63,600 bases of DNA, filler included, from Piedraia hortae CBS 480.64 (GCA_010093745.1; 3 parts of 3 records of this genome joined end to end with filler, not necessarily neighbours in it); one strand, 5' to 3'; shown: positions 1,949-62,480, numbered from the whole stretch's first letter. Numbers and translations: made by a program. The notes: generated by a model from the letters alone, not told the origin.

Positions 1949-3126
1949 TAGTATAACTGACACATCAGGTAATGTCATCAACCGTAGCGGGTTTTTTTTT
2001 TTTTTTTTTTTTTTTTCTTGGCAATACTGTTGACTGAAATGACGCCCTGCGGCTATAACCAGGATTGAGGGCGATCAGCTCCATGTTTTAGATTGCTGTC
2101 AGGCAAAGCAAGCAGCAAAGCAGCACACCGAAGCCTTGCCATCTACATCGACAACAGTTGCCGTGTCGGGCTCATTGCAAACATGCTAAACCATGCCCTT
2201 GAATTTCCATCGCTATTGTGCTCTTGTATAGCGCGATTACATATAAGAACGAAGCATACTGGCTTGGAAACAACCCAGTGTGCACCGCGTAAAAAGACAA
2301 GCCTCTCAATGTTCCGCAAAGGCCCTATCGCCGAACTGCAGCATGTTCACAAATGTCAAAAACTTCTCACACATCATCCTAACTTGCCTGATTGAAAGGC
2401 CCTTTGGATCAAAAGCTGCTCAGGCATTTGAGTTGTGATTGTGGAGAGAAAGTAGTTGACAAGCGACGTGTGTGGAGTCAAGTTCGAGGGGACCCTCCGC
2501 TCTAAATCAACCTTGATCTTAGTTTCTATATGTGGGAAGTGATGGGAACGCGCTGTAGGATTTGGGGCGTCCAGTATGCTTGTGATAGCTTTTGCTATAC
2601 TATATAGCAGGAACTCCAGGTTTTGAACAGCGTGAAGGCACCGTGGTACTACGGTTATTATAAAAAGTTATATGTCATACCTGCAGAGCATGTTACCATA
2701 ATGTAGCCTTAATAGACCATGGCTCTTATTTCACAGGTCAGAAAGGAGCAGCAGAGGAGCGTCGATAGATCTGGCTGCGGCTATAAACCTAAGTACAATT
2801 TAGAATGGGTAACTGGGCGCGTGCAATCCATGTCATCGGCGTACGTTACGCAGATCAACGTACGTGGCACCGCCAGGGTATGCCAACAGTTCTAGGGTGT
2901 CAAGCTATTCTTGCGTGGTGGAAGCAGTCAGAATCCAATAGCATAATAGTAGCATAGCAGCATAATGGCATATTCTAACTGAGTAACTGCATAACAGCGT
3001 AACAGCGCGGCAACGTTGAAAGCGCGTATGGCTTTATATAATGTGCATTATATTCTCGTGAAGTTTCGGTTAAAACATTTGATCGGTTGGACACCACGCA
3101 TCGAGATTGCTCCGGATACCTGCCCT

Positions 3127-3162
3127 ATCAGGTCGTGGCGATATCTATCGCCACGACCTGAT
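3127..3162. repeat. Perfect 17-bp inverted repeat with 2-nt spacer
   Basis: ATCAGGTCGTGGCGATA-TC-TATCGCCACGACCTGAT. Confidence 0.95.
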
Positions 3163-3448
3163 CAACCCATGGATCCAGGTCAGGGCTAGGCAGCACTCGC
3201 CATGGAGGTGGAGAAATCCACAGTACAATGCGGCAGAAAACTGCTATCTTCACCCTGGGTAAAAATCAGCAAGGGCCTTTCTCACATGTTCAAATTTCAA
3301 TTACTATAGCATACGTTGCAGTGCAGTTCTCCTGGCAATTTTCACAGCAGATTCAAGAAAGAAACTTCAAATTTAGCGACACGGACCGACTGCATCGCTC
3401 AGTAAAAGGAATCAGGACCGTTGGAAATTTGAACAATTTCAGTTTCAT

Positions 3449-6400
3449 TCAGAAGGAGTCTTTGCCCGTGAAATACAGCACAGTAAAACCAGTCTCTTCA
3501 TTGGGAAAAGTCATTGTTCGCCCGCACGAGAACCAATCATACCATCTCAGCAGATCAGGGCGTTTGAACATCTTCCGACCATTGACAGTGATCCACTGGT
3601 ATGTAGGGTCCAAGGCCCAGATTTGTCGGTCTTGGAACATCGAAGTTGAGCTTGTCGAGGCGGAAGAGTCCGCCTGCGTTTGGGGCTGATTGTCTTCGTT
3701 GGCTGCTAACCTATCCACGACAGGCAGGAACGCTGACGACACAAAGTGACCATCGATAGGTATCGAACCATATTCAGGGCCCTCAGCGAGTGTGCGCACA
3801 ATGCACGCCTTTTCAATATCCCATTCATATAACTTATAAGAGTGCCAAGTGTAGAGCATCCGACCGTCTGCTGAGAAACATGCCTCATACATTGTCTCTT
3901 CAGAGCTCAGTACCAGCGGGGTTTGTGACTTCGGTCCCCAGATCCTTACTGTCTTGTCGTATGATGCCGATGCAAAGTTCTGCCCATCTGGAGAAATCGC
4001 TATATTGTAGATTATTTCCGTATGACCGGTGAATTTTTCTCGCAGAAGTCCACGTTCCAGATCAATAGCCCATATCTGACCGTCGCGCAAACCGCAAAGG
4101 AGTGTTTTGTTGTCTGGGGATAACGCAAGAGCAGTAACATATCTCGGTCTGTCTTTTAACTCTCTCAGTTCATCTGCATCCATGTCCCAAATCAAAACCG
4201 CGCTGTCGTTGCGAAAAAGGGGTTGGTATATGCAGGCAACAACCACAAAACGACTGTCCGATGAGATCAGGATCTGCCTGGGATAGTACATATAGTGATT
4301 TATAAGCCTGTGATCTGTTAACCGCCGTTCGCAAATTCGCGTTTCAATGTTCCAAACGCTGAGATGGTTTCCATAACTCCATGAGGCGAGTGATCGTCCA
4401 TCCGTTGACAGTGCAAGAGTAGCGGGACCAGTTCGATGGTGCGGGGTCTTCAAGGCTAGATCCAGGTCCAGCTGTATAATTCGTCCATTATGATACCCCG
4501 CCCAGATTGTCTTCCCGTCGCGCGATGATGTCGTGGCTGTGACGCGGCTTCCCAATCCCAGTTTCATCGGCCCTTGTTGCGTTTGAAAGTCGTAGAGATA
4601 AAGACCAAACCAGTCACCAAAAAGAACTTTCTGGCTGTCTGGCGTTACCATGAGAGAATAGACACGAGAATTTCGCTTGATCTGGTCCACTTGGTGGGTG
4701 GTGCAGTGAAACACCGATATCGTGCCAGAGAGAAAGACCACGAACTTGCCATTTGGCGAGATGGTGATGCGCTCGATATCAGCACCAACTTGGTATACCA
4801 TCTTATGCCCAGCTTGTGGGCTCCATTTCCAGATGTCTGTGGATCCCGACACCAGTGTCTCGCTATCCGACGAGAAGTGCAGGCACCACACTGGAGAGTT
4901 ATGACCCTTAAGCACCTGTCCGGCGCCCTCTTCGGAGTTGTTGTCGGCGTCCCAGATGTAAATCTCGCCGGTGTCCAAGCCCCAAGCGGCATATTGGCCG
5001 TTCGGAGAGACGGAAACGCTTGCTGCAACGCCTGGCAGTTTGATATTAATTGGCCTGGCGTCGTCTTCCAAGTTCCACCTCCAATAATCTCCGGACGACC
5101 CGGCAATGACCACAATGTCTTCTTCAGGGAAGGCTGAAGCGAATATGGGAATAGACCCACCGGATGAGTTAATTTCCGTACTTTTTTCTTCGGTGCCGCT
5201 CTCAACATCCCATAGTCGTGCTGTGTTATCACTGGCAATAGTCACAAGCCTTCTCCCGTCGATCGAAGGCGTTATCGACAGTATATAATCAGAATGCCCC
5301 CTCAGCGTTTGCAACTCAAAGCCCCAATCAGTCGCGACTGGTTGCCAAACTTGCAAAAACTCTTCCTCCTCACTTCGGAAGCTGTTTCGCACGACACTGT
5401 TGCTCGGTGCAGAAGCCACTGCTGAGAGATATGTCTGAAGCGGTGCATCGCTGATCATATTTTGACTTGCTGGGACCCATCTCAGAGCATCGGCGACAAA
5501 GGCGTGTAGCTTGGGCGATGATTGTGACTGCGCAGCGTTAGGCATACTTTCGGCGGACGGAAACAGAAGCAATACATACGTCGATGGCCTCTTGCAGCTT
5601 CTTGAGGCATATTATAAGTTCCCCAAGCTTATCCAGCCAGGCCATTGCCTCTGTCCAATGAAGGAAACATGCGCGCAAGGAACAGTCGACTTTTCCGCCA
5701 TCTTCAAGTGTCTCATTGCTTTTGACTGCATGACTAACCCAGTAGCGGCAGGCGTACTGTACTGACTCAGAAAGGTGCTTTTCGACATGCTCTGCGGACA
5801 CATCTTTGCGTTCCGTTGCTGGATCTTTCTGCTTGCAGACATCGCGGCCAAGCTTGTTCGTGAGCAAGTCTAGACATCTCGTTAGGAGGATACCATGAGT
5901 CTTGCCTTTGTCAATCGAGAACTGGGATTTGTCCTTGAGATTGGGATCCACAAGGAAGTCTCTGAAGGATTCATGATAAATCCGCACCGTGGCTCGAGAG
6001 CCTGATTTCACCTCCTTTCCGCTCGGAAAGTCGATCACCGAACTCAAGGGTTTGAGAGCATTCGGAACAACCATGTTATCTCCATCCCCCAGCAAATCCG
6101 TCAACGCCGGAATCGAGAGGGGAGCACGCAGAACGACAATTGGCTCGATGGCTCGCTTCAAGTGGCCGAGCCACCTTGGATCAACCTTAGAAGCCTGCTC
6201 GAGAATGCCTGAATAGATGCAGTTCAGCCTTTCTGAGCCAGTGAAATTGAGCCGGTCGACCCATTCCCGAAGCTGCCTTCGTGGATCGTTGCTCGCTTCT
6301 CGGAATATCGTGGAGGCTGCAATGAACAGTGGCTTTGATATTTCCACAAGTTTGTCGACAACGCTTTCCCCTGGCCAGTCGTCCTCGAGCTCGTCATAGC

Positions 6401-8113
6401 TGGACTCCTTCCTGCTTTGCTCTCGAAGCCTTCTCAGTTCATCGTGACAGAACAATCTCAAGTCGCCTTCAATGGTACTCGATTGCCAGTGTTCAAGCCT
6501 CTCGTGCTGGAGATCCTTGTGCCCCATCTCGCTTAGCTTATCCCCGATCTTGTTGTCGGACCGGCTCGTCACGAAAACTCTTAGGTTCATGGAGCTTTGT
6601 GCACGAAGACTCGGCCAAAGAGTCATCGCATGGCCTATCGCTCCCCAGTCCTCGCACTCATCAAGAGCATCGATAACAATCACCCGAATGTCCGTCGCAG
6701 AACCCGTGCCATATCCTGAAAGTGGCCCTTTTATGAGCGTATCGAACTGAGTTGTCAGCGGCCTTTCGTTCACCGGAGGGGAGCCTTTGGAGGCGGCAGC
6801 AATCTCGTGGCTGATGCTGGGTACAAAGTCTGCCATCTGACGGGCAATGGTGGGAAAGAGGCTTCGTGCGCGGCACAATTCACCCCGGCCACGCTTGAAG
6901 AAGAAGCTTCCCACCAGGTACCCTTGTTTCGCCAGTTCATCTGCAACGGTTCGAGCAATTGTGGACTTGCCCGTTCCGGCCTTTCCGCACAGCCAGAACA
7001 CTCTCTGATCATTGGCAGTGATGGCCCAGTCCAGGATCTTGCGTTTGATGTCCACCCGTGTACCTGCTAGACATAAATGTAACTCGCCAATGTCGTCGGC
7101 ATTACGATAGTCCATCGAATCGTAAGCTGCCCCAGCAGCCGCCTGTAGAGCATTAAGATCTAGCAGTTGTTGAACGCCCTTGATTCTCTCACTGACTTCC
7201 TCTTGAGCCTTCCTCAACGCCTTAAGCTGCTCATTGACCCATGCCCGCTGCTCCTCTGAGACCTCGCGATCGACAGCTCTTGCATGATGTTCAGCCGTCT
7301 TCAGCACTCCATTGTGATCGATTTCGAAGTTTGGTATAACCACACCAGTCAGAGAATGTACAATACGCTCCCACCGGTTCATCTCGCACGTGTTTCGGGC
7401 ATGCGCAACGAACTTCAGAATGAGGGCATACAGTTTGACCATGTTGTGATACAAGTTCCCAATCGTGGGCGTGCCATCGAGGCGGCCGTATATGTCAAAG
7501 TATACGTTTAGGAGGTAGGTGGTGTCTAGAGCGATTTCGATGCCCTTTAGGATCGATTCCTCCTGATGATGGACCTTTTGAGCAGTCTACGAAGAGGTGT
7601 TACATGGGTTTGCAGTGACTGAACAGCTTAACAGCAACTTACCATCAACAGAAAGCGAATGCCGGCCCACGGTAGGCTAAGAACCTCTGGTTTAACATTG
7701 ATTGCAACGTCAGCTACTGGCGCAAATTGCAGGATTTGACAGGCAATCTTCCTCATGCTGGCAATCCATTGATTGGGCTTTCTGGTCTGATTTTGACTTC
7801 GCAAGGCAAGCACTTCAGCTGCGTCTCTTTCATAATCACCATCGGGTTGGAGTTGCTCCTCAACCAACCTGCGGTCGTCAGGTGAAAGACCGACAAGGGC
7901 ATCAAGCATCATCTGCCTCCTATCTCGAAACGGGTTGTTTGAAACCATCGGTGGAGGCAAAGACTGGACAGGCGCATTTTGTAGCTGCAAGGGCTGTGAA
8001 GGCAGAGCAATGGAAGCGGAGGCCCGCGACGTGGAGTTGAGTGAAGCGGCAATTTGCGATTGTGAGGTCTGCCATGCTCCATCCAATTTCCTGCGCTTCG
8101 ACTCTGCGGGCAT
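3449..8113 (-). CDS. Fungal NLR: NACHT_N/Goodbye-like N-terminal domain + NACHT NTPase + WD40 repeats (HET-E/NWD-like), about 1518 aa, 3 exons
   Basis: Exons 8113-7643, 7586-5580 and 5527-3449 join in frame across GT-AG introns 7642-7587 (56 nt) and 5579-5528 (52 nt). Motifs: N-terminal SLPWAGIRFLL, Walker A GKAGTGKST, Walker B IVIDALDECE, YHESFRDFL, YACRYW, and WD repeats (GHSDYILSITPSIDG...RLWD; GHTEIIYNIAISPDG...RIW). Confidence 0.92.
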
Positions 8114-9331
8114 TCTGGGCGTGGAGAAGCGGTGACAATATCGACCCTGAGTCTAGATGGAGGAAGCCTTTGCAAGGTTTCTCCCCAAGGCTGAGGGCTG
8201 ATGGATTGGGGTAAGAGTGGCGTGCATGCATAAATCGACCGCTGACGTGGAAAGTGATTGGAGCGGATGCCGTTCGCCGCCGAGACTCGCACACAAGAGT
8301 ACCCTATATGAACTACCCAGGGAGACATAATACCAATCCCTGGCCAAAAGCCCAATAGCTTCCAGGATTCTGGCCAGGGCTTGTGGTGGGATTTTGTAGA
8401 ATGACATTTTTGCGTAACGTGAGCGAGACGCCTCCTACTCACCCCTGGATCAGATCGGCTTACTGACATAATTCGAAGTTGCTTAGAGAGGAGATTGCAG
8501 ATTCGGGGTTGCTCTTAAGCGCGCACGATTCTTGTCTGGAAGATTCTGGCGTGATAGGGTTTTCCATGCACGATTCTTGTACTATTACCGCACGGTCCAA
8601 GGAGTTCTACGAACTCTATCTTCCATTCCTTTCCAAGATTACTGCGCTGTTTTCATGTACCGCTCATAAGCGGAAGTTCTACGCGGTACACATACGGTAC
8701 AGTCCTTCACGAGGAACCCCAAAAGCAAGATGCCACCGCTCGCTCTCTTCGCTCTTCGCCGGAGTGATTTCAACCACTTGACGACTTTCCAGATCTTTAG
8801 TTTCCTTCGTAGAAGTCTGGCTGACATCGCTTTGGAGCTTTTTGCGTAGCTGGTCGCAGCGAATATCTGATCCTTGTCCAAACTATTACAGTCGGTTTAG
8901 CCCAAACAGCAAGAGCAGATCCTTGCCCTTCATCCTCCAGTATATCTCTCGACTCAAAGGCTTTCACTTCCATCTCCCTCAATTACTCATGCTTTAGGAT
9001 CCCCGCGTCCGGCTTTCTCTGCTAAGTTTCTCTACCTCCTGATCCTGGTTCCCTGCTGGATGCTGATCGCACGGTCTAAGGCTCGATAACTTACGCTGCA
9101 CGTATTCCGATGTGCTGGAGCCACGCGGCGTAGCGAGACCGACATCGGGCGATAGCTCCAGTGAAGTTACGTTGGGTTCCGCCCCCGCTACCCCACCACC
9201 CCGCCCTCGTCCCGCGGGGAACCCCAGTTAGATCACGGATGGAATTCATTCCGAGAGGCGCTAACCACATTTGGTACTCGACTTCACCTCTCTGCGAAGC
9301 TGGCCTCCAGATCGCAGCACGCAATGCAATA

Positions 9332-12300
9332 ATGTCAACATCACCTCCTCCGAACCCAAGTGCCTCTACATCCACCGACCTCGATATACAGAAACTCCAC
9401 GCCCTACCCTCTGATCAACAACGCCTCTACCTCTTAACCTACACAACCCAACTCGCGGAGCGAATCTCCCCTTCTACAACCCCCCAAACCCTCCTGAAAT
9501 GCGTCACTCTCTCCACCCCAGCCCCCACACGGGTAATGCGAGCCAACCTTGCGCGCGCATACGCCAACCTCTTCGCCGCCTCATCGAAGAACCTCTACGA
9601 GACGATCAACACCCTATCCTCCCTCCTCGGCGGTAAAGAACACCCCGCAACGCAACACGCAGCTGCGACCTGCCTGGCTTCAATATATCTCAGACACGGC
9701 GAGAACGCAGTCTCCCTCGCTCCCCTCGTAACCTCCGCCTTGATAAAATCCCTCCGCACACAGGACGTCGGTCTGCGTGCGGGGGCTTTCCACGCCCTTA
9801 CAGGGATTATCCAAGGCATAAAAGGCTCGATTGACGAAGATTCCGCCCGCGCGGTTTGGAAAGCATGTAGGTCTGCTGCGCAGGGTGATAAAGCCCTCTT
9901 AACCCAGAAAAGGGCATGTGAGTGTCTTGGCACGGTTGGGACGCTGACGAGGTGGTTTGATGATGCTACTTCGGTTGATAAGTTGGTGGGCGCCGCGTGG
10001 AGGGCGATGGAGAGTGGGAGTAGGGATGTCAGAACCGAGGCGGCGAAAACGATTGCGAGAAGGTTGGCGAGGAGTTATGCTGCTGTTGGGACGGCGGCGA
10101 CACCTGCGGTGAGGAAGCAGGTCCCGCTTAGGAAGAGTGGGGTTAAGGGTGTGAAAGAGGAGGAAGGGAGGGAATCCTCTTCGAGGACTGGTTCGAGGAC
10201 GGCTTCCCCCGCGGCGGAGAAGACGCATGCGCTTTCGTTTCTGGAGGTGCTGAAACTGCTGTCGGCACAGTATACGCGCACAACGACGAGTAATCGCGCC
10301 AGGGCGGGGATTGCGGCGGCGTATGTGATGCTGTTTAGGGAGTTGGGGGAGCAGACGGTTGAGAGACATTATGGGGAGATTGCGATGCATTTGTTTACGG
10401 AGCTGCTTAATCATCCAATAGTGCACGTTAACAAGTACAGGCAGATGATGACGAGGCGGTTTGTGGGCGTTATCTTGGAAGGGGTTGTGGGTGGGATGTT
10501 GGGAGAAAGTGCGCAGTTGAATGCCGCAAGGTTTTTGATTAATGATGTTCTCAAAGATTATCCTCAGGCGATTAAAGAGAGGCCGGAGCCGACGAAACAG
10601 ACGCTTACAGGTGCGCTGAGCGCGTTGACGGGGCTGATCGATAGTCTGGATTCTGCTATTGCGGCCATCGCGGATCAGTGTAGAGATGCCTTGCTGCAGG
10701 TGCTCAAACATCCTAATTTCACGGTGCAGGTGCATACAGCTCATGCTCTCAGGGCGTTTGTCCTTGCACATCCGCAGCATTTGCTGTCTGTTGTGACGAT
10801 TTGCATGAACAGTGTGTCAAGAGAGCTTGGCTTGTTGGGTGGGCCTAGACAGGCCTTGAGGCAGTGTATCGGTCATGCGTATGGTTTGGCCGCATTGCTG
10901 AGCACGTCAAGCCACCGACCATTGTACGGTGCAGTGGACGTCTATGCACGAGTCTTCCAGCAGGCGACGGCTCTCCTCAAATCAAGCAGCAACTCGGACC
11001 TTCGCATCTCCAGCTGCCAGGTACAGGTTGCATGGACCATGATCGGTGGCCTCATGTCACTTGGCCCGAATTTCGTCAAGATCCACCTCTCGCAGCTGCT
11101 GATGCTGTGGAAGAATGCCTTGCCCAAGCCCGGCCAGCAGCGGAACATGCTCGAGCTGAGCTATCTCGCCCATGTGCGGGAGTGTGCGTTAGGAAGCATC
11201 AAGGCTTTTCTGACTTTTAATCAGAAGTTGCTGACGGCTGATGTCTCCAGACGGCTGGCTGCCATGCTGGAGAACACGGTCACATTCTTGCAGGGGCTGC
11301 CGGAGAGGAAGACCAGCGAGGACCCGGCAAACAGGCTCACGCCGGCGATGCAGCTGCAGGATTATGAGATGATGGTGCGGGCTCGAGTGTTTCAGTGTTT
11401 CGCCCAGCTGCTCATCCTGAGCCCGGCCGAGAGCGTCGAGGTCAATTCCATTATTCTGCCACTTGCAGTTGCAACGTTCTCGAATTCAGAGTATTACCCA
11501 CCCAGTTCGCTGAACGCGGCCATTGCGAGCGCCGCAGCTCAGTTTGAAAGCATCTGGGATGTAGGCGATAATAATGGCTTCGGCGTAACGGGGCTTGTCA
11601 GGGGCCTGGACGTCGTCGATCCAGTCACTAGACAAGCACGAAAACATTGGTCAAGCAGAGAGGGTTACCTTCACGATATAGACCGCACACTCACATCACC
11701 CATTGGCTGTGCAGCAGAGAATGACCCTACGAGTTGCTATCTCGCCGAATCAGAGTTCAACCCGCCAGGCACCGAGGCTGTCAACTCTGCCATTGCCGTC
11801 TTCAGCCTCTGTCTTCCGCTGCAGTCTCCACGGATCCAAGAGAGTACACTGGAAAGAATTTCTCTCTCCTTGACGGGGACAAGAGATGCTGCCCGCAGAG
11901 CTGCCATCACCGTAAATACTGCTGTAGCCTTGGCTACCGCATCTAGCAGTGCCAAGGGCGATCTCAGCCACTCAAACACGCAAAACGCACTCACATCGCT
12001 GCTGCACATTTGCCTCAAAGACGCCGATCAGGCTGTTCGCCAGCTAACGGCAGAGGCGATCGGCGCGTTCTGCTCCGCGTCTGGCAACGTGAAGGCAGAA
12101 GTGACTTATCTCACAGAGACGATAGTGAGCAATAGAGAACCGCATGTGCGTGCTGGCTGTGCACTGGCGCTCGCCGCCATCCATTCGCAGCTCGGCGGCA
12201 TGGCAGCGGGCTTCCATATGAAGCAGATTGTCAGCATCTTAATGTCTTTAGCGGCAGACACTCACCCGCTGGTCCACTGCTGGGCGCTGGACGCTCTCGC

Positions 12301-15148
12301 ACAGGTTGCCGAATCCGCGGGTTTGAATTATACGGGTCATGTCGCGAATACAATCGGCATGTTGAGCCAGCTGTATGCGTCAGATACGCATAATGCGGAG
12401 TGTGCGGCAGTTGCGTCGTCTAACATGGCGTTGGAGCTGCCCGTTACAGCTGCCATGGCGCGGGGTGTAGATGCTGTCATCAACGTCCTCGGCCCAGACC
12501 TGCAGGATATGGTCAAGGCAAGGGATATGATTCTCACAATGGTGCGGCTGTTCAGTCAGGAGGATGCCATACCTGTCCAATCGGCGGCTCTACGTTGCAT
12601 GGAACATGTATCGGTCTACGCACCGGGATACCTCGACTTTGCCCAACATGTCCAGACGTTGCAGACTGACATCGAGTCCGAGTCGGTCGAGATCTCTTCC
12701 ACTGCCCTGCACGGTCTGTCGGATCTCATGAGGAGGGATGCAACGGCTGTCGTCAAGGCAGCACGGCCGGGCCTTGAAGATGCGCTCTGGGACCGCCTCA
12801 ACTCGGAGCCATACCAGAAGAATATCAGGAGTATATTCACAAATTGGCTGGGGCAGACGGGGTCTACAGATCCCGCGGACTGGATTCAGCGGTGTAATAC
12901 CATCTTGACAAAGACAAAAGCCAGTGCGGAGCGATCTGAAGAGGAAGCGGTGCCGGACGTGCAGGATGAGGAGGTAGCCGGGTTCGCCGTTGGAGAAGCT
13001 CCCCAGGCGCCAACATCTACGCAAGAGCTTCTGCGTTGGCAAGTGCGTTTGTTCGCGCTGGAGCTGCTTTCTGATCTCATCTTCATGATCACGAAGCAAG
13101 CCCTCGTCACAGACGACAGCCCGGGGGAGCTCGCCCTGCAGAGCAAGGTAGCAGATGTGGTCCGCATTGCGTTCTCCGCCTCCACAGCGGGTGTCACCTC
13201 GTTGAGGGTGCTTGGTATGCGCATCATCCAGCAGGTTCTGGAGCTCTTTGGAAAGAGCCCCGACCCAGACTTTCCCGATGCGATGCTGCTAGAGCAGTAC
13301 CAGGCCCAGATCAGTTCCGCGCTGACGCCCGCATTCGCTACAGATTCGTCGCCTGAGCTTGCAGCCGCAGCGGTCAGCGTCTGTGCGACTTTCATCGCCA
13401 CGGGTATAGTCACAGACGTAGACCGTATGGGGAGAATACTGAAAGTGCTGGTTTCCAGCCTAGACAACTTCTCAAAAGACACAGACTGTGCGAGCATAGG
13501 CGATCTGAAGCATCTCAGTGCAAACGCGCTCGTCATGGTCCGCATGGCTGTGTTTTCGGCCTGGGCGAAGCTGCAGATTGCGTCTACAGAGCAGACATAC
13601 CTGATGCAGGTCGTTGAGCCGCACATCACGCAGCTCATGCCGCTTTGGTTGACGTCGCTGCGGGAATACTCGCATCTGCGCTTCGAGCCGGACATCTCTG
13701 CCACGCTCGGTACGCCGTCGTCTGGGGACGTGGATACCGTGTATGCTGCATTGAACAGGCAGACGCTGCTGAGATTTTATCAGTCTTCGTGGTTGAGTCT
13801 GGTCGATGCGATTGCGTCTTTGATCGATCAAGACTCAGAAGCAGTCTTCGATGCCCTAGACGATAGAGAGCCGCCGACGACGCCAAAACAGATCAACTAT
13901 CGCGAGGAGCCCGTGGCCTTCTTCTTTGTCCTCTTCGGTCTCGCTTTTGAATCCCTCGCCACGAGGTCTTCCGATGACGATATCGTCTCTCGTCAACGCA
14001 ACTTGGAGATTTTACAAGCGCTGAAACGCGTGCTTCGGCCTTCAGTATCAGGAGATGCAGTGTACCAAGAAGTTGTCTTTTCCGAAACAGTCGATCTGCT
14101 CTCACGCATGGTGCTGACCGAAAGCCTCAGCGTGCAGAGCAACGTTGTTGAGATCGCGCGGAACCTCTGCATCGTGCATCCCTCTACCCGCAGCGAAGTC
14201 TCATCCGATCTATCCGAAGAAATCGAGCAGCTCTTCGAGCTAACGAGGATCATCGTCCTCGTCCTTGGAAACCTCATCCCAGGACTCAGCGACTCCCCCG
14301 TTGCAGTGCAGGATCTCGACGCATCAGACGAAGCGACCGCTTTAGCAAAGACAGCCCTCCAGGCTCTCGTCGACGTGTCGAACGTCTTTCCCACCGTTAT
14401 AAAACTCGATCTCCATGCGGCGATCCTAAACGTCTTTGTCGCTACCCTCGCGGCGCCTACGACGCAGAAAGCGTTGGTCAAGACAACCCTGCCACTTTTC
14501 AAGTCATTTGTCGAGACCGTATCAGCCTCTGACGGGGGCGAGCTCTTAACACATGCTTTCACGCGACTAACGGGCGTCTTACGCCTAGCACAGAGGAGAG
14601 AGGGTGCGTGGTCTGTGGACTGCGAGACGAATGTCCTACTAGCACTTACCATTCTGCTTGGGAGCAAAGGGTGGGATGCTTTGCCTTGGACAGGGAGCTT
14701 CATAGCTGAGCTGGACGGCGCAGCGAGGAATCCCGTCACTGCGAGGGTGGCGCTCGGCTGTTTGCGGACACTACTTCTAGCGGGGGTAGGAGCGAGGAGG
14801 ATAGTGGAGTTGGGGATTCGATTTGTCCTCGATCCTGCCGTGGAAGGGAGGGATTTCATGACGCAGACGCTTGCACTGTATGTTGGGAAGGTGGAGACGC
14901 GGATGGTGTACATTGGTCTGCTGGTCAAAGTACTACTGGAACGGGCGAGGAGGGGGGAGAAAGTCGCGGATGAGATTCTATTTCTTGCGTCGGTTGATCA
15001 AACCACTTTCAGGGCTGTGGTGGGGGGTCTGGCGGGAGATGAGCGGTCTTCTTTGGAGCAGGTTCTGAAGGAGAGGGCGGCGGCGAATGCGGTTCGCAGA
15101 GCTTCGGATGAGAAGGAGCCAAGTATAGCTCTGAAGATGGATTTTTGA
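9332..15148 (+). CDS. LAA1: HEAT-repeat AP-1 accessory protein (Laa1/HEATR5 family)
   Basis: Intronless ORF of about 1940 aa (likely ATG 9332) with HEAT-like helices. Family-typical segments LMSLGPNFVKIHLSQLLMLWKNALP, LLEQYQAQISSALTPAF and C-terminal PSIALKMDF. Confidence 0.88.
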   Translation: MSTSPPPNPSASTSTDLDIQKLHALPSDQQRLYLLTYTTQLAERISPSTTPQTLLKCVTLSTPAPTRVMRANLARAYANLFAASSKNLYETINTLSSLLGGKEHPATQHAAATCLASIYLRHGENAVSLAPLVTSALIKSLRTQDVGLRAGAFHALTGIIQGIKGSIDEDSARAVWKACRSAAQGDKALLTQKRACECLGTVGTLTRWFDDATSVDKLVGAAWRAMESGSRDVRTEAAKTIARRLARSYAAVGTAATPAVRKQVPLRKSGVKGVKEEEGRESSSRTGSRTASPAAEKTHALSFLEVLKLLSAQYTRTTTSNRARAGIAAAYVMLFRELGEQTVERHYGEIAMHLFTELLNHPIVHVNKYRQMMTRRFVGVILEGVVGGMLGESAQLNAARFLINDVLKDYPQAIKERPEPTKQTLTGALSALTGLIDSLDSAIAAIADQCRDALLQVLKHPNFTVQVHTAHALRAFVLAHPQHLLSVVTICMNSVSRELGLLGGPRQALRQCIGHAYGLAALLSTSSHRPLYGAVDVYARVFQQATALLKSSSNSDLRISSCQVQVAWTMIGGLMSLGPNFVKIHLSQLLMLWKNALPKPGQQRNMLELSYLAHVRECALGSIKAFLTFNQKLLTADVSRRLAAMLENTVTFLQGLPERKTSEDPANRLTPAMQLQDYEMMVRARVFQCFAQLLILSPAESVEVNSIILPLAVATFSNSEYYPPSSLNAAIASAAAQFESIWDVGDNNGFGVTGLVRGLDVVDPVTRQARKHWSSREGYLHDIDRTLTSPIGCAAENDPTSCYLAESEFNPPGTEAVNSAIAVFSLCLPLQSPRIQESTLERISLSLTGTRDAARRAAITVNTAVALATASSSAKGDLSHSNTQNALTSLLHICLKDADQAVRQLTAEAIGAFCSASGNVKAEVTYLTETIVSNREPHVRAGCALALAAIHSQLGGMAAGFHMKQIVSILMSLAADTHPLVHCWALDALAQVAESAGLNYTGHVANTIGMLSQLYASDTHNAECAAVASSNMALELPVTAAMARGVDAVINVLGPDLQDMVKARDMILTMVRLFSQEDAIPVQSAALRCMEHVSVYAPGYLDFAQHVQTLQTDIESESVEISSTALHGLSDLMRRDATAVVKAARPGLEDALWDRLNSEPYQKNIRSIFTNWLGQTGSTDPADWIQRCNTILTKTKASAERSEEEAVPDVQDEEVAGFAVGEAPQAPTSTQELLRWQVRLFALELLSDLIFMITKQALVTDDSPGELALQSKVADVVRIAFSASTAGVTSLRVLGMRIIQQVLELFGKSPDPDFPDAMLLEQYQAQISSALTPAFATDSSPELAAAAVSVCATFIATGIVTDVDRMGRILKVLVSSLDNFSKDTDCASIGDLKHLSANALVMVRMAVFSAWAKLQIASTEQTYLMQVVEPHITQLMPLWLTSLREYSHLRFEPDISATLGTPSSGDVDTVYAALNRQTLLRFYQSSWLSLVDAIASLIDQDSEAVFDALDDREPPTTPKQINYREEPVAFFFVLFGLAFESLATRSSDDDIVSRQRNLEILQALKRVLRPSVSGDAVYQEVVFSETVDLLSRMVLTESLSVQSNVVEIARNLCIVHPSTRSEVSSDLSEEIEQLFELTRIIVLVLGNLIPGLSDSPVAVQDLDASDEATALAKTALQALVDVSNVFPTVIKLDLHAAILNVFVATLAAPTTQKALVKTTLPLFKSFVETVSASDGGELLTHAFTRLTGVLRLAQRREGAWSVDCETNVLLALTILLGSKGWDALPWTGSFIAELDGAARNPVTARVALGCLRTLLLAGVGARRIVELGIRFVLDPAVEGRDFMTQTLALYVGKVETRMVYIGLLVKVLLERARRGEKVADEILFLASVDQTTFRAVVGGLAGDERSSLEQVLKERAAANAVRRASDEKEPSIALKMDF

Positions 15149-15260
15149 AAAGCAAGGTGATTCTTGCAACGATGCAGCATGATGAATGTTTATTGACCAC
15201 AGGCTGATGCAGAAGCGCACTGCATTCGATACCACAGAATGGAGTTCAGACTTTATACAC

Positions 15261-16214
15261 CTACCACTTAACAGTCTGCATCTCCATTTCCGGCGGTGCA
15301 GCCTCCTCTTCATACTCGATTGTCATCTTCGGCCCCTTCTTGCGCTGCCCCTTCATCTTATCTTTACGTTTGCGTTTGTTTCCCGTCTCCTCATCACCCT
15401 CCCCACCCTCCCCACCCTCCCCATCCTCTCCATCCTCCTCATCCCCACTATCCCCTGAAAACCAATCCTCCAAGTCCTCATCCGAATCCTCACCCTCAAC
15501 ATACTCAACCTGCGCATCCTTCTCATACTCCACCTCATGTTCCTCCTCCTCCTCCTCCTCCTCCTCCCCCTCCTCCGCCTCAACCATCGAATCAAGCACC
15601 TTCTCCCACACCTTCTCGTCACAATTGAGCGGCACCTCACCATAAACCCCACTCTTCAACCTCTCCACCAACTCCTTTTCAATCGCACGTTCCACCTTCG
15701 CAGCAGCAACAGCCCTCCTCTCCCGCCCCTCCTCCCTCCTCCTAACCTTCGGCGCCAGGCGTCCCACGACCCTCTCCCCCAATCTCTCCTGCTCCTTGAC
15801 CAACCTCCTCTCCCTCGCCCTAACCTGCACCAACCTCGTAAGCCGTTGCAAACACCGATTAACCGCGCCCCCATTCCAATGCGCCAAGCGCGTCTGAACC
15901 TCCTCAACCGCCTTCGTATAATTATCGCTTAATCTAATCCGCTCCCACCATCTCTTTGGGAGATGCGCCCGCTCAGGTTCTTTGATGTAGAGGTATATCC
16001 GCCCCGTGGCGGGGTCGGTGCGGACGGTAGCGTAGCGCGAGTTGGCGATGGGACAGGTCTGGCGCGAACAGACGCCCGTGAGGTTGTACTCGTTGCGGCA
16101 GAACGTGGATGCGCCGCCGACGTGGCCCCGCCCGCGCGTGCGGTTGGGGAGCGTGAGTTTGAAGGAGCAGAATTGCGTGTTGATTATTTGCCAGGTTATC
16201 TCGTCGGAGGACAT
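15261..16214 (-). CDS. MAK16: Ribosome biogenesis protein Mak16
   Basis: MSSDEITWQIINTQFCSFK...FCRNEYNLTGVCSRQTCPIANSRYATVR, ERAHLP, IEKELVERLKSGVYG, and an acidic tail ending IEYEEE. Confidence 0.95.
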   Translation of the reverse strand: MSSDEITWQIINTQFCSFKLTLPNRTRGRGHVGGASTFCRNEYNLTGVCSRQTCPIANSRYATVRTDPATGRIYLYIKEPERAHLPKRWWERIRLSDNYTKAVEEVQTRLAHWNGGAVNRCLQRLTRLVQVRARERRLVKEQERLGERVVGRLAPKVRRREEGRERRAVAAAKVERAIEKELVERLKSGVYGEVPLNCDEKVWEKVLDSMVEAEEGEEEEEEEEEHEVEYEKDAQVEYVEGEDSDEDLEDWFSGDSGDEEDGEDGEGGEGGEGDEETGNKRKRKDKMKGQRKKGPKMTIEYEEEAAPPEMEMQTVKW

Positions 16215-16379
16215 TGTGGTGGGTTGGTCGTTGGCGGAGGGAAATTTTTGGGGTGTGGGCGCGCTAGGAAGGGGGGGCTAGGCTGGGTTGGGTTAGTGCG
16301 GTGATGTCGGTTGGTTATCTGGAGGGAGGGAGGGAGGGAGGGAGGCAGAAGCGGACGTGGAGGGTAGCATGGAACCAGA

Positions 16380-19046
16380 ATGGTGATGATGCGTGCACAG
16401 TTGTGTAGAGCGAGCTGTTGGCCGGCCGGCCAGGCTGGTGTTTTAGACCGAGCTTGGCGGTTTGGTGGTTCGTGTAGGCCGGCGCATTCTCTCGCGCATT
16501 CTCTCGCGCCTTCACTGCGTGGGGGCTGTATGACTACCGGTCGAGCCACAATCGATCCGAACCTTGCCGGACTGAGACACGCAACGACAGAAGCCGGCGA
16601 GAACAAGACAGGCCACATCACGCTGACGCCGCGGGAGTCGATCCTCTTCTTCGGCAACTTGCTTCCTATAGACATCCAATGGCTCTTCCGCTACCTACGG
16701 ACTTCATCCTTCCAACGCCTCGGTGCTGCGTCGCCGCGTCACGTCCTCGAGGATGCGGTCAGAACGAACAACTTGGGCATCACCCATGTTTCGGTCGTCG
16801 AGGTCCTGCCGCGGCTCAAAGAGGGCGGTGCATTCGTCAAGTTCGCCCACGACGAGCATTCAGATCCCGCTACCATCTCCGAAGCGGTGAGGGTGTACTT
16901 GAAGAACCAGAGGATACGACCCTGGTGGAACCCCCTCAGGAGGGTCAAGGCGAGCTTGGTGGTAGGGAAGCCTTGGCTCGAGGATCTCTATCGCTTGCCC
17001 TCCAGGAGACTCATGGTGGAGTTCCTGCCCACGAATCCCGCTGCAACCGCGGCGGAACTCAGCCCCGAGCAGCTGTATTCGTTCTTCAGGCCGTACGGCA
17101 AACTTGCTGAGATTGTTCCGCAGCCGGCAGATTCAAAGGTCCTGCCAAGGTTTGCGTATCTTGATTTCTCGCATAGGGATCGGGCGGTTCTTGCCAAGAA
17201 CTGTCTCCATGGATACACTGTTCGTGAGGACGAGGGGGGAGGCAAGGACGGCACCGTCCTGCGATTGACGTACCACAAGAAGAGCCGCTTCAGGTGGGCA
17301 AAGGACTTTTTCCTGAATCATCCGCGTATTGTGGTGCCGCTTCTCGCTGCGCTGGTTGCGGGCATCAGTATTGCCATCTTTGATCCTATAAGGACGGCGA
17401 GCATCAAGGCTCACATCAGAGGTCATTCTTTGGGCAAGTGGCTACACCGTGGACGAGATTTCATCGTCTCGGCTGCCAAAACGCAGCTACGTCTGGGGGA
17501 TAACACCAACCAGAGTGCCGTGTTATGGGCAGACCGCGAGGACGAGATATCTACCATCCGTGCTTGGTTGATGGAGAGCACCGAGACGTTCAATATCGTC
17601 TACGGCCCCCGAGGCTCAGGCAAACGCGAACTCGTCCTCGACCACGCCTTGTCCGAGAAACACGATGCGAAGAAGCTCCTCGTCGTAGACTGTAAACCAA
17701 TGCTTGAAGCCCGCAGCGACTCCACCGTCATCCTCGCGGCGGCAAACCAGGTCGGCTACCGCCCCGTGTTCTCCTGGATGAACAGCATCTCAGGCCTCAT
17801 CGATCTTGCCGCACAGGGCGTAACGGGCGTCAAGGCCGGCTTCTCCGAGACGCTGGAGACGCAACTTAACAAGATCTGGCTCAACACGGCCGTGGCACTG
17901 AAACAAATCGCACTCTCGCAAAAAGAAGGCGAATCTACCGACGACGAATGGCTCCTCTCCCACCCCGAAGCCCGCCCCGTCGTCGTAATCGATAACTTCC
18001 TCTTCCGCACATCCTCTTCCGAAGGCAGCAAAGACATGATTAACCAAAAACTCGCCTCCTGGGCCGCAGACCTGACAACCACAAACGTCGCGCACGTAAT
18101 CTTCCTTACCGACGACGTTGCCTTTGGCAAGACGCTAGCAGCTGCCCTCCCCGGTCGTGTCTTTCGCCATCTCACCCTCGGAGACTGCGAAACCGAAACC
18201 GCACTCCGCTACGTCCACGGCCAACTCGAGGAGAACTCTAATCACCACCACACGCTCCTCCACCACGATAGCAGCCCTGCTTCCGACGAAAAACCCCAGG
18301 TCGATCTATCAACCCTCCCCCAGTCCATCGCCACGCTCGGCGGCCGCCTCTCCGATCTCGAATTTCTAAGCCGCAGGATCCGAGCGGGCGAAACCCCCGA
18401 ACATGCCGTACGCGAGATCATAAGCATCGCCGCTGCGGAGATTACGAAGATGTTCCTTCTCCCTGGTCCCCAGCGGGGGTTTACAGAGGGTCAAGCATGG
18501 ACGATCGTTCGCTCGCTTGCTAGCGATCAACAAACCCATCAGAATCCTAACGCCCACCCGTCATGGAACCCCTTCCAGCTCAAACCCTCCACGGAGACTG
18601 ATCCAAGTGGGGTGGATCCCTCGGCCCCGCGGATAGGATATCACACCATCCTCCTCACCCCACCGTTCAAGACAGCAGGCGAAGCAGCCCTCGCCGCTTT
18701 GGAGCAAGCAGAACTCATTACGATCGAATACTCCGACGGCCGACCGGCCTCCATCCGCCCCGGGCGGCCAGTCTATTCCGCTGTGTTCGCGAAGCTGGTC
18801 AAGGATCCGGTTCTCAGTGCGAGGATGGATCTGGGGTTGGTGGGAGAGAGGATTAAGGCTGAAGAGAAGAAGGTTGAGGCTGCGGAGGAGGAGCTGAAGT
18901 TGATTGGGGGCTTGGCGAGGAGGGCGAGGGGGTTGGAGGGTAGGGTGGAGTACCTTGTTCAGAAAGTGGATAAGGCGCAGAGGAGTGTGGTGCAGTTGGA
19001 GGGAAGGGAGGATAAATTGAGGGGGGTGTTGGAGAGGGAGGGGTGA
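16380..19046 (+). CDS. YME2: Mitochondrial escape protein 2 (RRM + RNA12 domain)
   Basis: Arg-rich presequence, PRLKEGGAFVKF, LYSFFRPYGKL (RRM), TM segment after HPRIV, GPRGSGK, QVGYRPVFSWMNSIS, LGGRLSDLEFLSRR. Confidence 0.93.
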   Translation: MVMMRAQLCRASCWPAGQAGVLDRAWRFGGSCRPAHSLAHSLAPSLRGGCMTTGRATIDPNLAGLRHATTEAGENKTGHITLTPRESILFFGNLLPIDIQWLFRYLRTSSFQRLGAASPRHVLEDAVRTNNLGITHVSVVEVLPRLKEGGAFVKFAHDEHSDPATISEAVRVYLKNQRIRPWWNPLRRVKASLVVGKPWLEDLYRLPSRRLMVEFLPTNPAATAAELSPEQLYSFFRPYGKLAEIVPQPADSKVLPRFAYLDFSHRDRAVLAKNCLHGYTVREDEGGGKDGTVLRLTYHKKSRFRWAKDFFLNHPRIVVPLLAALVAGISIAIFDPIRTASIKAHIRGHSLGKWLHRGRDFIVSAAKTQLRLGDNTNQSAVLWADREDEISTIRAWLMESTETFNIVYGPRGSGKRELVLDHALSEKHDAKKLLVVDCKPMLEARSDSTVILAAANQVGYRPVFSWMNSISGLIDLAAQGVTGVKAGFSETLETQLNKIWLNTAVALKQIALSQKEGESTDDEWLLSHPEARPVVVIDNFLFRTSSSEGSKDMINQKLASWAADLTTTNVAHVIFLTDDVAFGKTLAAALPGRVFRHLTLGDCETETALRYVHGQLEENSNHHHTLLHHDSSPASDEKPQVDLSTLPQSIATLGGRLSDLEFLSRRIRAGETPEHAVREIISIAAAEITKMFLLPGPQRGFTEGQAWTIVRSLASDQQTHQNPNAHPSWNPFQLKPSTETDPSGVDPSAPRIGYHTILLTPPFKTAGEAALAALEQAELITIEYSDGRPASIRPGRPVYSAVFAKLVKDPVLSARMDLGLVGERIKAEEKKVEAAEEELKLIGGLARRARGLEGRVEYLVQKVDKAQRSVVQLEGREDKLRGVLEREG

Positions 19047-21545: not shown

Positions 21546-22369
21546 TCAACGCCGGGTACGAACCCTTTTGCACTGCCTTTCCCTATCACGAAAGGAGTAT
21601 CGAGGAGCAGGTGACTTTTCTTTTCGTATATCATCTGGTTGAGCAGACGACTTCTCTGATTGGGGTGAAAAATCATCCACGTTCTCCCTCTTTCGATTCT
21701 TCTGTATACTATCAAGTGCAACCGTGTTCCCTACCTTAAACCGAGAGTTCCTAACGCGGTCCTGAACCGCTTGGGGATTAATACGACGGGCAATTCTTGC
21801 AACGCGATTGCTGAAGGAATCAGTCTTTGCACCTCTTTTTTTTTTCCCCCACCCGTGCGGACTTACCGCCCAACGATTCGCAAATGAGGATATTGCCTCC
21901 TGATATAATCATAGAGCTCATTACGATTGAGCCCCGTTACCTTTTTATCCTTCAACTCCCTTTCCAGTACTTCTTCGATATTTTGATCCACCTCGTCCTC
22001 TTCGTACGGCATCGTCCGCTTGTACAGGCCCATTTCCTTCCTGATCTTGGCAACCACGCGTGCCGAGACTTTGTAACCATTTTCACTGAGCATTTCTGCC
22101 ATCTCTGCATCCGTCAGTCGTGTGTTGGTGTGCATGGCTCTGATTTCAGCTGATATATTTTGCTGACTGGGATCCTGAGCTTTCAGGGGGGGGTTACTCT
22201 TGCGGATGCCCCACTCCTTTAGCCTACGACGTAGCGTGCAGTCGCTTACTTTGAGATCATGAGTCTTTCTGAGCATTCGTATGACTTCTTTGACGGTGAA
22301 GTCTTCGTTCGTTATCAGATGCGCGACGCGATCCCGCCATTCGTCCAGATCGAGCCGTGGCGCCGGCAT
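21546..22369 (-). CDS. Clr5-domain/HTH protein, about 255 aa, 2 exons; resembles the N-terminal half of fungal Clr5-integrase-core transposase-like proteins
   Basis: MPAPRLDLDEWRDRVAHL...VSDCTLRRRLKEWGIRK. Intron 21866-21811 (GTAAGT...CTGAT...CAG) joins to exon 21810-21546 (NRVARIARRINPQAVQDR...RVRTRR*). Confidence 0.7.
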
Positions 22370-23099
22370 GATGGTGCGAAGCTCTCAGCTAAGCTCTCGG
22401 TGATTTCACCGGAAATACCTATGGCGGAGAAATTGTAGTGAAAGGGGTCGCGGCACCCACGGCGCCCCAGACCTACACGTCGTGCTGGCGCGCGTGTTAA
22501 GCGATGCAAACGAACGCCGACCAAAATGGTCGGCTTTCAGTAACGAAAAATTTTGTGGAAAAGGGTCGCTTTCCCGTTCCGAAGAAGTAGCGGAGAGCAG
22601 TCTCCGAGTCGAGCGAGTGAGGTTTCGGTATTTTTTGTTTGCTCTTATGAGCAACGACGGGAAGAGCCGAAACGCGGAATTGGTCCGCCTGTGTGAATTT
22701 ATTGGACGGTTTATTCATCAATTGATTTGGGTAATGATATGGGAACAAATTTCGCCAGCCAGCTTGTATCACAAAGACTTGAATCTGGAGCTGTTGGATC
22801 ATTGTTCATATGACTGTACATCAGTCCCCAGTTTCGATCGAAACATCAATCTGCCACCTGCTCCCCACATCCCCTTCAATAGCGCACACTTGAGATACCG
22901 TGGAGACTCGTACGTCTGGATGATACGCTTGAAATACTGCATGCTGAGCCTGACGTCCAGGGCAATCTAGCGGGGGGCTTCATGCTCGCCCAAAAGGCTT
23001 TGACCTTATGTGATTTTCTACGGTAAACCATACACACCATAAGAACAGAACAGTTTGAATGAGGTTCATGGTGCAGTGCTCTTTTCAACGGTCACAAAA

Positions 23100-23700
23100 G
23101 GGATAATTGGAGCATTTCATACAGGGGCCATGGCTGAATACAAATCCAGTCCCATCGGGGAAAATCCTAATCCTCTATTTTCTTTGCATGTGCCCTGAAC
23201 CTTCTTGAATCGATAGTCCATAGCTGGCTGTCCAACGAAGCGTCAAACAGCGTTTTGTTGTCTGGAGGTATCGCAAGAGCAGTTATGCGGTATGGTTTGC
23301 CATCCGTCTCTGTCTAGTTATTATACCAGCAATGCTGAAGGGTCGGGGAAAATTGTGACACTCAAGCAGCACCCATTTGTCATTCCGGACAATCCCAGCG
23401 AAGACACTGCAAGTGTGTAATAGGTTCCAAGCAGTGAACTGGCTATCTGGAGGGACTGAAATGCAATATGCATTACCAGTTAGCTGCACGTCAATTCTTC
23501 CGACATATTCTTGCAATTCCCGCCCGAGAAGATCGCCGTTCAGCCCGACAATGATCACCAGGTTTCTCACAGGGATAAATGAAGCGACGCTGTGTGAGAC
23601 CAGCTTCGCCCTGTCCTCCAGATGTCGTTTTCATTGTCCCATAGTTGTAGAGTTGTCAGAAGCTATAGTTCCAGCGTCCCACCCAGTTTGCTTGTGTGGA
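23100..23700 (-). pseudogene. Third, heavily degenerate relic of the same NLR WD40 domain, with internal deletion
   Basis: Fragments TIASDNS, LVIIVGLNGD...IDVQLTGNAYCISVPPDSQFTAWNL, ITALAIPPDNKTLF...QLWTID and GFSPDG align with TIASDNT, IVVIAGSSGD...IDLKLPSVAYSVSVSPNGRYAAWGL, VTALALSPDNKTLL...QIWAID and AISPDG of the other copies. Boundaries approximate. Confidence 0.75.
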
Positions 23701-25051: not shown

Positions 25052-25847
25052 GTCGACAAAGGCCTTGAATCAAAAACATGGGCAACAGCTACATAGAACA
25101 GTGCTGCAAAGTCGCCCACAAGGTCAACTGCTGCAGGCTGTCCGAATTTAGGCCGAAGAAGCTCGGTGGGAAGATTCTTTTTCATGCCCTGCACGAGTCA
25201 CGAGATTGTTCCGTTCTTAAAGTTTAAAATTAGATCCTCCCTCGCAGGTATATCGAAGACGTATGCATGAGATGGGATTGTGGCTCGCTCACACCACGCA
25301 AGAGCAGCTTGACGCCCGGGTACCACGGTGTATGAAGATTACATTACGGTAACATATTCTGAGCTTCTGACACATAAAGCTTTTAATCAACGTAGTAGTA
25401 CCGTGCCTCCACGCTGTTTCAAACCCTGCAGTTTCTCCTAGGTAGTTTGCTTCACAAGCCTCTTCTCCTTCCCGGTCCCACAACTATACTCAAACTGCCC
25501 AGTTGATGCTCCACCACAGCCCTGGATTTACTCACCTTCTTTACAATCATCACGAGCTTACCAACCCACCGATCCAGCTCAGATATAGGCAACACCGGCA
25601 CGCAGGCGGAGACACCCACAGCACGATGCGGCTGAAGACTGGTATCTGCATCTCAAAGAATTTCAAAAGACCTTTCTTCACAGGGTTGACTGCGATGGCC
25701 ATAGCGTGCAATGAATTTTGCAGTTCTCCTTGCGTAGGTTTTCGCAGCAGGTTCAAGGAAGAAACTTCAACTTTAGCGACACGTACTTATCTCATCGCTC
25801 AGTTAATAAATTGGGACCGTCGGAAGGTTGAACAAAATCCATTCAAT

Positions 25848-31143: not shown

Positions 31144-31243
31144 NNNNNNNNNNNNNNNNNNNNNNNNNNNNNNNNNNNNNNNNNNNNTTAATTAATTAAN
31201 NNNNNNNNNNNNNNNNNNNNNNNNNNNNNNNNNNNNNNNNNNN
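31144..31243. other. Artificial contig linker
   Basis: 44 N + TTAATTAATTAA (stops in all six frames) + 44 N. Confidence 0.98.
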
Positions 31244-31247: not shown

Positions 31248-31306
31248 GTCAACTAGTTTTCCGTAGAGATTTGTATGCAGGTACACATCTGCTCACAATT
31301 ATAATA
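31248..31306. repeat. Contig-start repeat, copy B (identical to 1-59)
   Basis: Exact 59-nt match to the window start, preceded by ACGC at the contig edge. Confidence 0.95.
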
Positions 31307-61522: not shown

Positions 61523-61622
61523 NNNNNNNNNNNNNNNNNNNNNNNNNNNNNNNNNNNNNNNNNNNNTTAATTAATTAANNNNNNNNNNNNNNNNNNNNNN
61601 NNNNNNNNNNNNNNNNNNNNNN
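61523..61622. other. Artificial contig linker
   Basis: 44 N + TTAATTAATTAA + 44 N. Confidence 0.98.
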
Positions 61623-61649
61623 CATTGACGACGCGTGCCGACCTTCGCG

Positions 61650-62417: not shown

Positions 62418-62446
62418 GCCGCTTCTCCAATATCCTCGCCCCGCCT

Positions 62447-62477
62447 ATATAGGGTCCGTACCATAGTACGGAGTCAA
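62447..62477 (-). promoter_or_regulatory. MerR-type promoter/operator driving the Grx-MauE gene
   Basis: Minus strand: TTGACT (-35, 62477-62472), 19-bp spacer, CTATAT (-10, 62452-62447). Dyad TCCGTAC-N4-GTACGGA at 62455-62472. Confidence 0.9.
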
Positions 62478-62480
62478 GGC

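Follow-up and report, generated by a model that had tools for sequence, protein, structure and literature searches.

Two NLR gene copies on one scaffold

The window studied here, i.e. the whole stretch of 63,600 nucleotides from Piedraia hortae CBS 480.64, is composed of three scaffolds spliced with artificial linkers at 31144–31243 and 61523–61622. Its first scaffold (1–31143, no internal N) carries two related NOD-like receptor (NLR) genes of the NACHT-WD40 kind, the intact copy A and the pseudogene copy B, and the subject of this work is a 391-bp tract that is identical in both and most probably records a recent exchange between them. The two copies lie 22.4 kb apart in direct orientation on this gap-free 31,143-bp scaffold, and three housekeeping genes sit between them (Laa1/HEATR5-like, Mak16 and RNA12), so A and B are separate loci and not alleles. 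The features are as follows, with minus-strand exons given in the order of transcription.

3449–8113, minus strand: copy A, intact NACHT-WD40 NLR gene encoding protein P0003 of 1518 amino acids (aa)
8113–7643, 7586–5580 and 5527–3452, minus strand: copy A exons of the gene model, followed by the stop codon at 3451–3449
7587–7642, minus strand: copy A intron 1 of the gene model, 56 nt (an X2 contig joins 7586 to 7643, with CT..AC ends on the plus strand)
5528–5579, minus strand: copy A intron 2 of the gene model, 52 nt, gtatgt...ctaac...cag (an X2 contig joins 5527 to 5580)
5055–5445, minus strand: candidate conversion tract in copy A, identical to 27420–27810; codons for aa 855–984
25848–30463, minus strand as in copy A: copy B, NLR pseudogene, read in the frame of A
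27420–27810, minus strand: candidate conversion tract in copy B, identical to 5055–5445
4065–4124 and 4145–4202, minus strand: two shorter exact tracts in the MAFFT alignment, equal to 26443–26502 (60 bp) and 26523–26580 (58 bp), respectively
9134–19046: housekeeping genes between the copies by Pfam, namely Laa1/HEATR5-like (9134–15148, plus), Mak16 (15261–16277, minus) and RNA12 (16368–19046, plus)
31144–31243, no strand: artificial linker N44-TTAATTAATTAA-N44, joining scaffolds

The annotated protein P0003 maps letter for letter on copy A. Pfam searches found NPHP3_N (E = 3.8e-28; 99 bits, cutoff 24.8) and NACHT (29 bits, cutoff 26.7), and the C-terminal propeller matched WD40 (PF00400) with 116 bits against a cutoff of 27, together with many other propeller families. 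Carrying both the NTPase and the propeller, copy A is, by its predicted domains, a fungal NACHT-WD40 NLR, i.e. an NWD-type STAND NTPase. At its N-terminus, encoded by exon 1, no Pfam match above cutoff and no recognised effector domain were found, the weak DUF7708 match (E = 0.009) lying below the cutoff. Within the WD exon, Tandem Repeats Finder (TRF) detected no tandem array and a direct-repeat search yielded only a 21-nt chance pair, nor did self-blastn of the window produce internal matches in copy A; the TRF and direct-repeat results therefore make it a receptor of low internal repeat conservation. An assignment to the NLRs of high internal conservation (HET-E-type) was rejected, since near-identical tandem WD units were not found.

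Two public sequencing runs, X1 (apparently DNA) and X2 (apparently RNA), were consulted as Logan contigs; of the words sampled from the region, about half occur in them. X2 contigs skip both introns of copy A, so spliced transcripts of A, or of a paralog very close to it, are present in this run. Just downstream of the stop codon of copy A, an X2 contig also skips the 60 bases 3254–3313 (3253 joined to 3314, with CT..AC ends on the plus strand), which suggests an intron in the 3′ untranslated region or in a neighbouring minus-strand transcript.

Copy B, read in the frame of A, is interrupted by five stops at aa 116, 239, 597, 759 and 1477 (codons starting at 30124, 29704, 28630, 28148 and 25976) and by two frameshifts, a 1-bp deletion near 26661 and a 4-bp deletion near 28488, and it keeps the ATG and both intron boundaries. 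Further donor pseudogenes were not found in the window, where tblastn with 17 paralogs returned only A, B and an unrelated weak WD40-like match at 23170–23681 on the minus strand. This last match has 28–50% identity to WD blades of the NLR family and is adjoined by a Clr5-domain frame at 21863–22384; with such identity only, it was rejected as a third family member.

Divergence inside and outside the 391-bp tract

Between 5055–5445 and 27420–27810 the two copies are base-for-base identical over 391 bp, and neither end can be extended by one base. The tract encodes aa 855–984 of 1518, namely a linker of about 41 aa and the first WD blades, as the propeller matches start at about aa 896. Window self-blastn placed it inside a 4.7-kb duplicated block, 3152–7814 versus 25551–30170, an alignment of 4691 columns that is 80.2% identical and has 829 mismatches and 24 gap openings. 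When A and B were aligned globally with MAFFT, the 100-column windows outside the tract were 45–94% identical, and those adjacent to it have 87, 94 and 91% identity, with a gradual fall on both sides. Exact runs of at least 20 bp number 24 in this alignment, the longest being 391, 60, 58, 51 and 44 bp.

An initial annotation, made from the sequence alone, had described most of this arrangement. The identity of the tract and the divergence on both its sides were reproduced by exact matching, self-blastn and MAFFT, and the sliding-window identity that it had called for makes the tract stand out; the contrast of an intact NLR with a pseudogene agrees with the exact mapping of P0003 and the five stops and two frameshifts of B; the placement over linker and first WD repeats, and the lack of near-identical WD repeats within the gene, hold as well. 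Its two shorter exact tracts at 4065–4124 and 4145–4202 do exist, but they match at an offset of 22378 and mismatch at 22365, the offset of the 391-bp tract, because of indels between them and that tract. The stretch 4065–4202 may stem from an exchange that was older or shorter, or else be a conserved block, and it lies in a WD part with a synonymous divergence (dS) of 0.18 (aa 1261–1330).

Chance was excluded as the source of the 391-bp run. Such a run in the block is expected about 1.5e-7 times at an identity of 0.94, the highest in the flanks, and about 6e-35 times at 0.80, and the probability that the ~90 synonymous sites of the tract show no internal difference, given a proportion of synonymous differences (pS) of 0.35 in the rest of the gene, is about 2e-17.

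Silent sites separate the tract from the rest of the gene. The dS between A and B is 0.011 for aa 855–984, owing to one difference in the boundary codon, versus 0.47 for the rest of the gene, and by segment it amounts to 0.91 (aa 1–128), 1.39 (aa 129–300), 0.47 (aa 301–600), 0.34 (aa 601–826) and 0.17 (aa 827–854) on the N-terminal side and to 0.23 (aa 985–1100), 0.50 (aa 1101–1260), 0.18 (aa 1261–1330) and 0.27 (aa 1331–1518) on the C-terminal side. Because dS varies so widely between segments, the comparison indicates several exchanges of differing age, among which the 391-bp patch would be the youngest. As the identity extends to silent sites and B is dead, selection on the protein is no explanation.

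Selection on the nucleotides themselves, i.e. a functional DNA or RNA element within the 391 bp that is kept identical, was also considered, and beyond the identity itself nothing speaks for it. One of the two copies is a pseudogene, the other paralogs have 69–87% protein identity to A in windows over most of the tract, so that the family shows no conservation of it, and the TRF and direct-repeat searches gave no signal of an internal repeat or structure; we regard such an element as extremely improbable. Repeat-induced point mutation (RIP) that degraded the flanks around a spared island was rejected, because substitutions between A and B show no directional bias (C>T 149, T>C 122, G>A 112 and A>G 116; 499 transitions and 369 transversions) and the dinucleotide indices are normal, with TpA/ApT of 0.50 in A and 0.54 in B and (CpA+TpG)/(ApC+GpT) of 1.40 in A and 1.38 in B, judged against the known thresholds for RIP.

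A mosaic paralog family and the origin of the tract

Copies A and B belong to a large family. A protein search with the WD exon retrieved at least 17 P. hortae proteins at 47–100% identity, followed by a drop to 22–28% (best 120 of 631 matches), and one with the NACHT exon retrieved at least 19 P. hortae proteins at 56–100% identity, versus at most 37% in other species (Elasticomyces, Friedmanniomyces, Cladosporium and Hortaea). Both searches scored the approximately 8000 candidates with the most words in common with the query, and more distant members may be missing. The members are P0003–P0019, P0123 and P0124, i.e. at least 19 annotated and species-restricted paralogs. For the family alignment, 17 proteins were combined with the conceptual translation of B, with X at each break, and all family-wide tests were made on protein sequences of one isolate.

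Along this alignment the nearest paralog of A and that of B switch between 60-column windows. Copy A is closest to P0009 at aa 129–242 (93–95%) and in three windows within aa 540–770 (95%), to P0008 at aa 363–421 (97%), and to P0005 and P0006 at aa 1293–1352 (90%); copy B is closest to P0004 at the N-terminus (78–79%), to P0011 and P0010 at aa 129–185 (93%), to P0007 at aa 186–242 (91%), and to A at aa 881–934 (100%). Segment trees changed in the same manner. For aa 129–300, A is sister to P0009 (support 100) with B in another clade, and a forced A+B clade costs 106 log-likelihood units and is rejected by the approximately unbiased (AU) test (p = 9e-16); for aa 301–600, A, B, P0008, P0009 and P0010 form one clade (98); for aa 601–826 the topology is (B,(A,P0009)) with a support of 99; and for aa 985–1260 the A+B clade is again rejected (AU p = 0.006). 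In the tree of the tract itself (130 aa), the path to P0004 is 0.44 versus 0.45–0.46 for P0008 and P0009, which are effectively equal, so that the direction of transfer cannot be read from it.

The same pattern was found between annotated intact genes that lie outside the window. P0005 and P0006 are identical over an unbroken 483 aa of the WD part, with N-terminal halves that are 34–80% identical and C-terminal ends that are 65–89% identical; both are listed on a 331,972-bp contig, the linkage of family pairs being taken from equal contig sizes only. Through aa 129–826, P0005 is sister to P0016 (support 100) and a P0005+P0006 clade is rejected (AU p = 2.5e-4), and in aa 985–1518 it is the P0005+P0016 clade that is rejected (AU p = 2e-9). 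Judged from these sequences, P0005/P0006 is a conversion or recombination event larger than that of the 391-bp tract, and as both genes are annotated as intact, exchange can do without pseudogenes. Other long exact stretches, in the NACHT part and elsewhere, join P0008 and B (64 aa), A and P0008 (54 aa), and P0013 and P0123 (66 aa). Run-length permutation marked 53 of 153 pairs at p ≤ 0.05 under a column-shuffle null and 63 of 190 under a null that takes site conservation into account. The comparison of linked with unlinked pairs (Mann–Whitney p = 0.04) includes only six linked pairs, too few for a conclusion.

Taken with the silent-site data, these trees point to ectopic (interlocus) gene conversion between A and B, and a very recent one, as the most probable origin of the 391-bp identity, and we hold this reading with considerable confidence. 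It is the best explanation because dS is near zero in the tract versus 0.17–1.39 elsewhere and because the A+B clade is rejected on both sides, and an internal patch with diverged sequence on either side calls for conversion rather than a single unequal crossover. All three marks of a conversion tract were found: a patch of internal identity in diverged homologous sequence, homogenised silent sites, and phylogenetic incongruence between tract and flanks. In mechanistic terms, a break in one copy would have been repaired by homologous recombination with the other copy as template, and the repair would have copied a few hundred bases without exchange of the flanks. The patch has wiped out all differences between A and B, synonymous ones included, in two copies that are otherwise old and mosaic, and the same process has probably been repeated across the NACHT-WD40 NLR family of at least 19 members, in all domains and in intact genes too.

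Several points weigh against this interpretation or limit its reach. Over aa 985–1518 as a whole, the A+B clade is not rejected (AU p = 0.14); A+B is the only clade that was fixed before the trees, the other tested clades having been chosen after seeing them; and for the rest of the family the evidence is at the protein level only. Many moderate run-length hits fall in the conserved block aa 761–874, which inflates the run-length tests, so their counts overstate the exchanges, and the trees and the longest stretches were relied on instead. The assembly adds a further concern. According to supplementary table 5 of the genome paper (PMC7082219), it was built with AllPathsLG from Illumina 2×150 bp reads of 270-bp fragments and a 2×100 bp, 4.5-kb mate-pair library; no 270-bp fragment bridges the 391-bp tract and is uniquely anchored at either side of it, so short-read assembly could have flattened a small number of real differences within the tract. 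The flanks are phased by mate pairs. Nor are the Logan contigs an independent test of collapse, because variants are merged in them, the family is shredded and none of them spans the tract.

What the contigs do contain is the following. Over 3000–8200 they form 198 and 413 short pieces in the two runs, none of them across the tract, and the tract interior 5102–5323 is in both runs one 222-bp contig with no differing letter. Of 40 differing letters listed, 23 match copy B; the contigs are thus not pure B and probably derive from other paralogs or from merged bubbles. The depth of the 222-bp contig in X1 is 25, about double the 13.4 and 11 of zero-difference contigs elsewhere, values that are not copy numbers and were not used as evidence.

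The possibility was also weighed that the loci do differ within the tract and that the assembler sent the two along a single path of its graph or corrected one copy to the other. In favour of this, the 270-bp fragments are shorter than the tract, k-mers recur so often across the family that the Logan contigs fall into hundreds of pieces, and short-read assemblies tend to collapse similar NLR paralogs, as stated in the available part of a recent paper (PMC13449251). Collapse, however, requires near-identity, as sequences 10% apart stay unmerged in a de Bruijn graph; at most, 100% would stand for some 98–99% and a recent exchange would still be required, so flattened differences would shift the event in time but leave its nature as it is. 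Moreover, on either side of the tract the frame of A is open and that of B is interrupted, as expected of a correct phase, which argues that the flanks are correctly phased; no alternative letter occurs within 4917–5461 among the contig rows listed; and the identity beside the tract (see above) declines gradually, in a biological-looking way with no sharp splice. An artefact of assembly is therefore improbable, and the identity is still best read as conversion.

Two further observations concern the assembly as such. Bases 1–59 of scaffold 1 are identical to bases 5–63 of scaffold 2 (window 31248–31306) in the window self-blastn; this common scaffold end may mark the border of a repeat at which the assembly broke off, or it may be an artefact of the library. 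The scaffold 3 piece (61623–63600) has 66% GC versus 52–53% in the other two scaffolds and has long frames without interruption that encode a MerR-family regulator and a cation-efflux protein; its appearance is bacterial, and it may have entered the fungal assembly as a contaminant.

Beyond conversion as such, the initial annotation had proposed that pseudogenes serve as silent cassettes, i.e. that B is a donor feeding patches into the expressed copy A in a templated diversification like that of avian immunoglobulin (Ig) genes or of antigenic variation. Some observations agree with such a role: a pseudogene is indeed one partner of an exchange whose other partner is intact, the family is a large mosaic one restricted to the species, X2 contigs are spliced at the two introns of A, and P0004, the N-terminal relative of B, is marginally the nearest other paralog in the tract tree. 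From Podospora, it has been argued, in the part of the article available, that the WD repeats of pseudogenes share one exchange pool with active loci (PMC1805685). Against it, the tract-tree distances are effectively equal and favour neither direction, one pseudogene and no donor array were seen, and the family's largest tract joins two annotated intact genes; N-terminal and NACHT parts were exchanged too, which looks like generic homologous recombination and not like a sensor-directed process, and the data come from one isolate. Templated diversification by copy B is thus unlikely, and the cassette role is unsupported. Of the broader proposals, patchwise conversion among paralogs is borne out by segments with different nearest paralogs and by the tree conflicts, and the caution that the direction of transfer is unreadable was justified by the near-equal tract-tree distances. 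That the exchange is directed at the sensor finds no backing, since shared long stretches and tree conflicts were found alike in the N-terminal, NACHT and WD parts, and a dedicated system was not recovered either, with one pseudogene, one isolate and no sign of one-way or programmed transfer.

Relation to known systems and meaning for the family

One of the closest precedents is the NWD/HNWD family of Podospora anserina (het-e, het-d, het-r and nwd). The available part of Paoletti et al. 2007 (PMC1805685) shows that WD repeats evolve in concert, both within NWD loci and between them, and RIP-killed NWD pseudogenes keep intact WD repeats, apparently via exchange with active loci; a 2026 paper, as far as its available text goes, restates this exchange and points to repeats that are the same in otherwise divergent members of the family (PMC13449251). 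In both fungi NACHT-WD40 paralogs exchange between loci by conversion and/or unequal crossing-over, pseudogenes take part, and identical stretches occur in otherwise diverged members. The systems differ in that near-identical tandem WD units are shuffled in number and order in Podospora, whereas the WD blades of P. hortae are mutually diverged and the exchange concerns positionally homologous segments, NACHT and N-terminal parts included; in addition, the Podospora pseudogenes were killed by RIP, and A and B bear no RIP signature.

In pseudogene-templated diversification, as of avian Ig V genes and the variant surface glycoprotein (VSG) genes of trypanosomes, likeness to the present pair extends to a silent broken copy and an expressed copy with a common copied patch, but in P. 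hortae there is no donor array and no evidence of one-way, programmed or somatic transfer. Chimeric 'type I' R-gene clusters of plants hold shared patches and mosaic genes that arise via intergenic conversion. A plant example is the three-locus RPP8 system of Arabidopsis, for which intergenic conversion among NLR paralogs is documented in the part available of MacQueen et al. 2019 (PMC6771003); there too, conversion between direct-repeat and dispersed NLR paralogs leads to shared patches and mosaic genes, though in a plant, with a leucine-rich-repeat sensor and with many alleles and accessions, in contrast to the WD40 sensor and the one genome of P. hortae. A 2025 survey of Sordariales, in its available portion, counts two NLRs as a cluster when they lie within 40 kb and fewer than eight genes separate them, proposes that clusters promote conversion, and reports that 16 of 272 clusters are made of paralogous copies (PMC12258605). 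The A/B pair falls within the cluster definition as given in that portion, and it differs in that conversion was only proposed there, while A and B are paralogous and carry a direct footprint of it.

No description of the P. hortae NLR family was found in the available parts of the literature naming both Piedraia and NACHT, and among the matches listed nothing on P. hortae was found in the literature on ectopic gene conversion among fungal NLRs. The tract is a new example of a known process, one to be expected in gene families of this familiar type, as exchange among fungal NLRs, pseudogenes included, and among plant NLRs has already been published. Its value is that of a clean, datable case of exchange in which the fungal NLR paralogs involved lack near-identical WD blades; so far, interlocus exchange of fungal NLRs has been known mainly from the repeat-shuffling Podospora genes and, for ordinary clusters, has only been proposed.

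Of 101 Dothideomycetes, none has a smaller assembly (16.95 Mb) or a lower gene count (7,572) than P. hortae, as given in the available part of the genome paper (PMC7082219). A large NLR expansion is noteworthy in such a reduced genome of 7,572 genes, and so is its retention. In P. hortae, a fungus with no RIP signature at the A/B locus, the rate, tract length and direction of conversion could be measured with long reads and further isolates. More tentatively, and with a probability that we put low, the at least 19 NLRs with their diverged WD blades may form a reticulate pool, in which frequent patchwise conversion among linked and unlinked members, dead copies included, makes receptor variants. 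If this were true, the family would be a fungal counterpart of the chimeric R-gene clusters of plants that works without repeat shuffling and without RIP, and transfer from pseudogene to gene would be a real source of receptor novelty.

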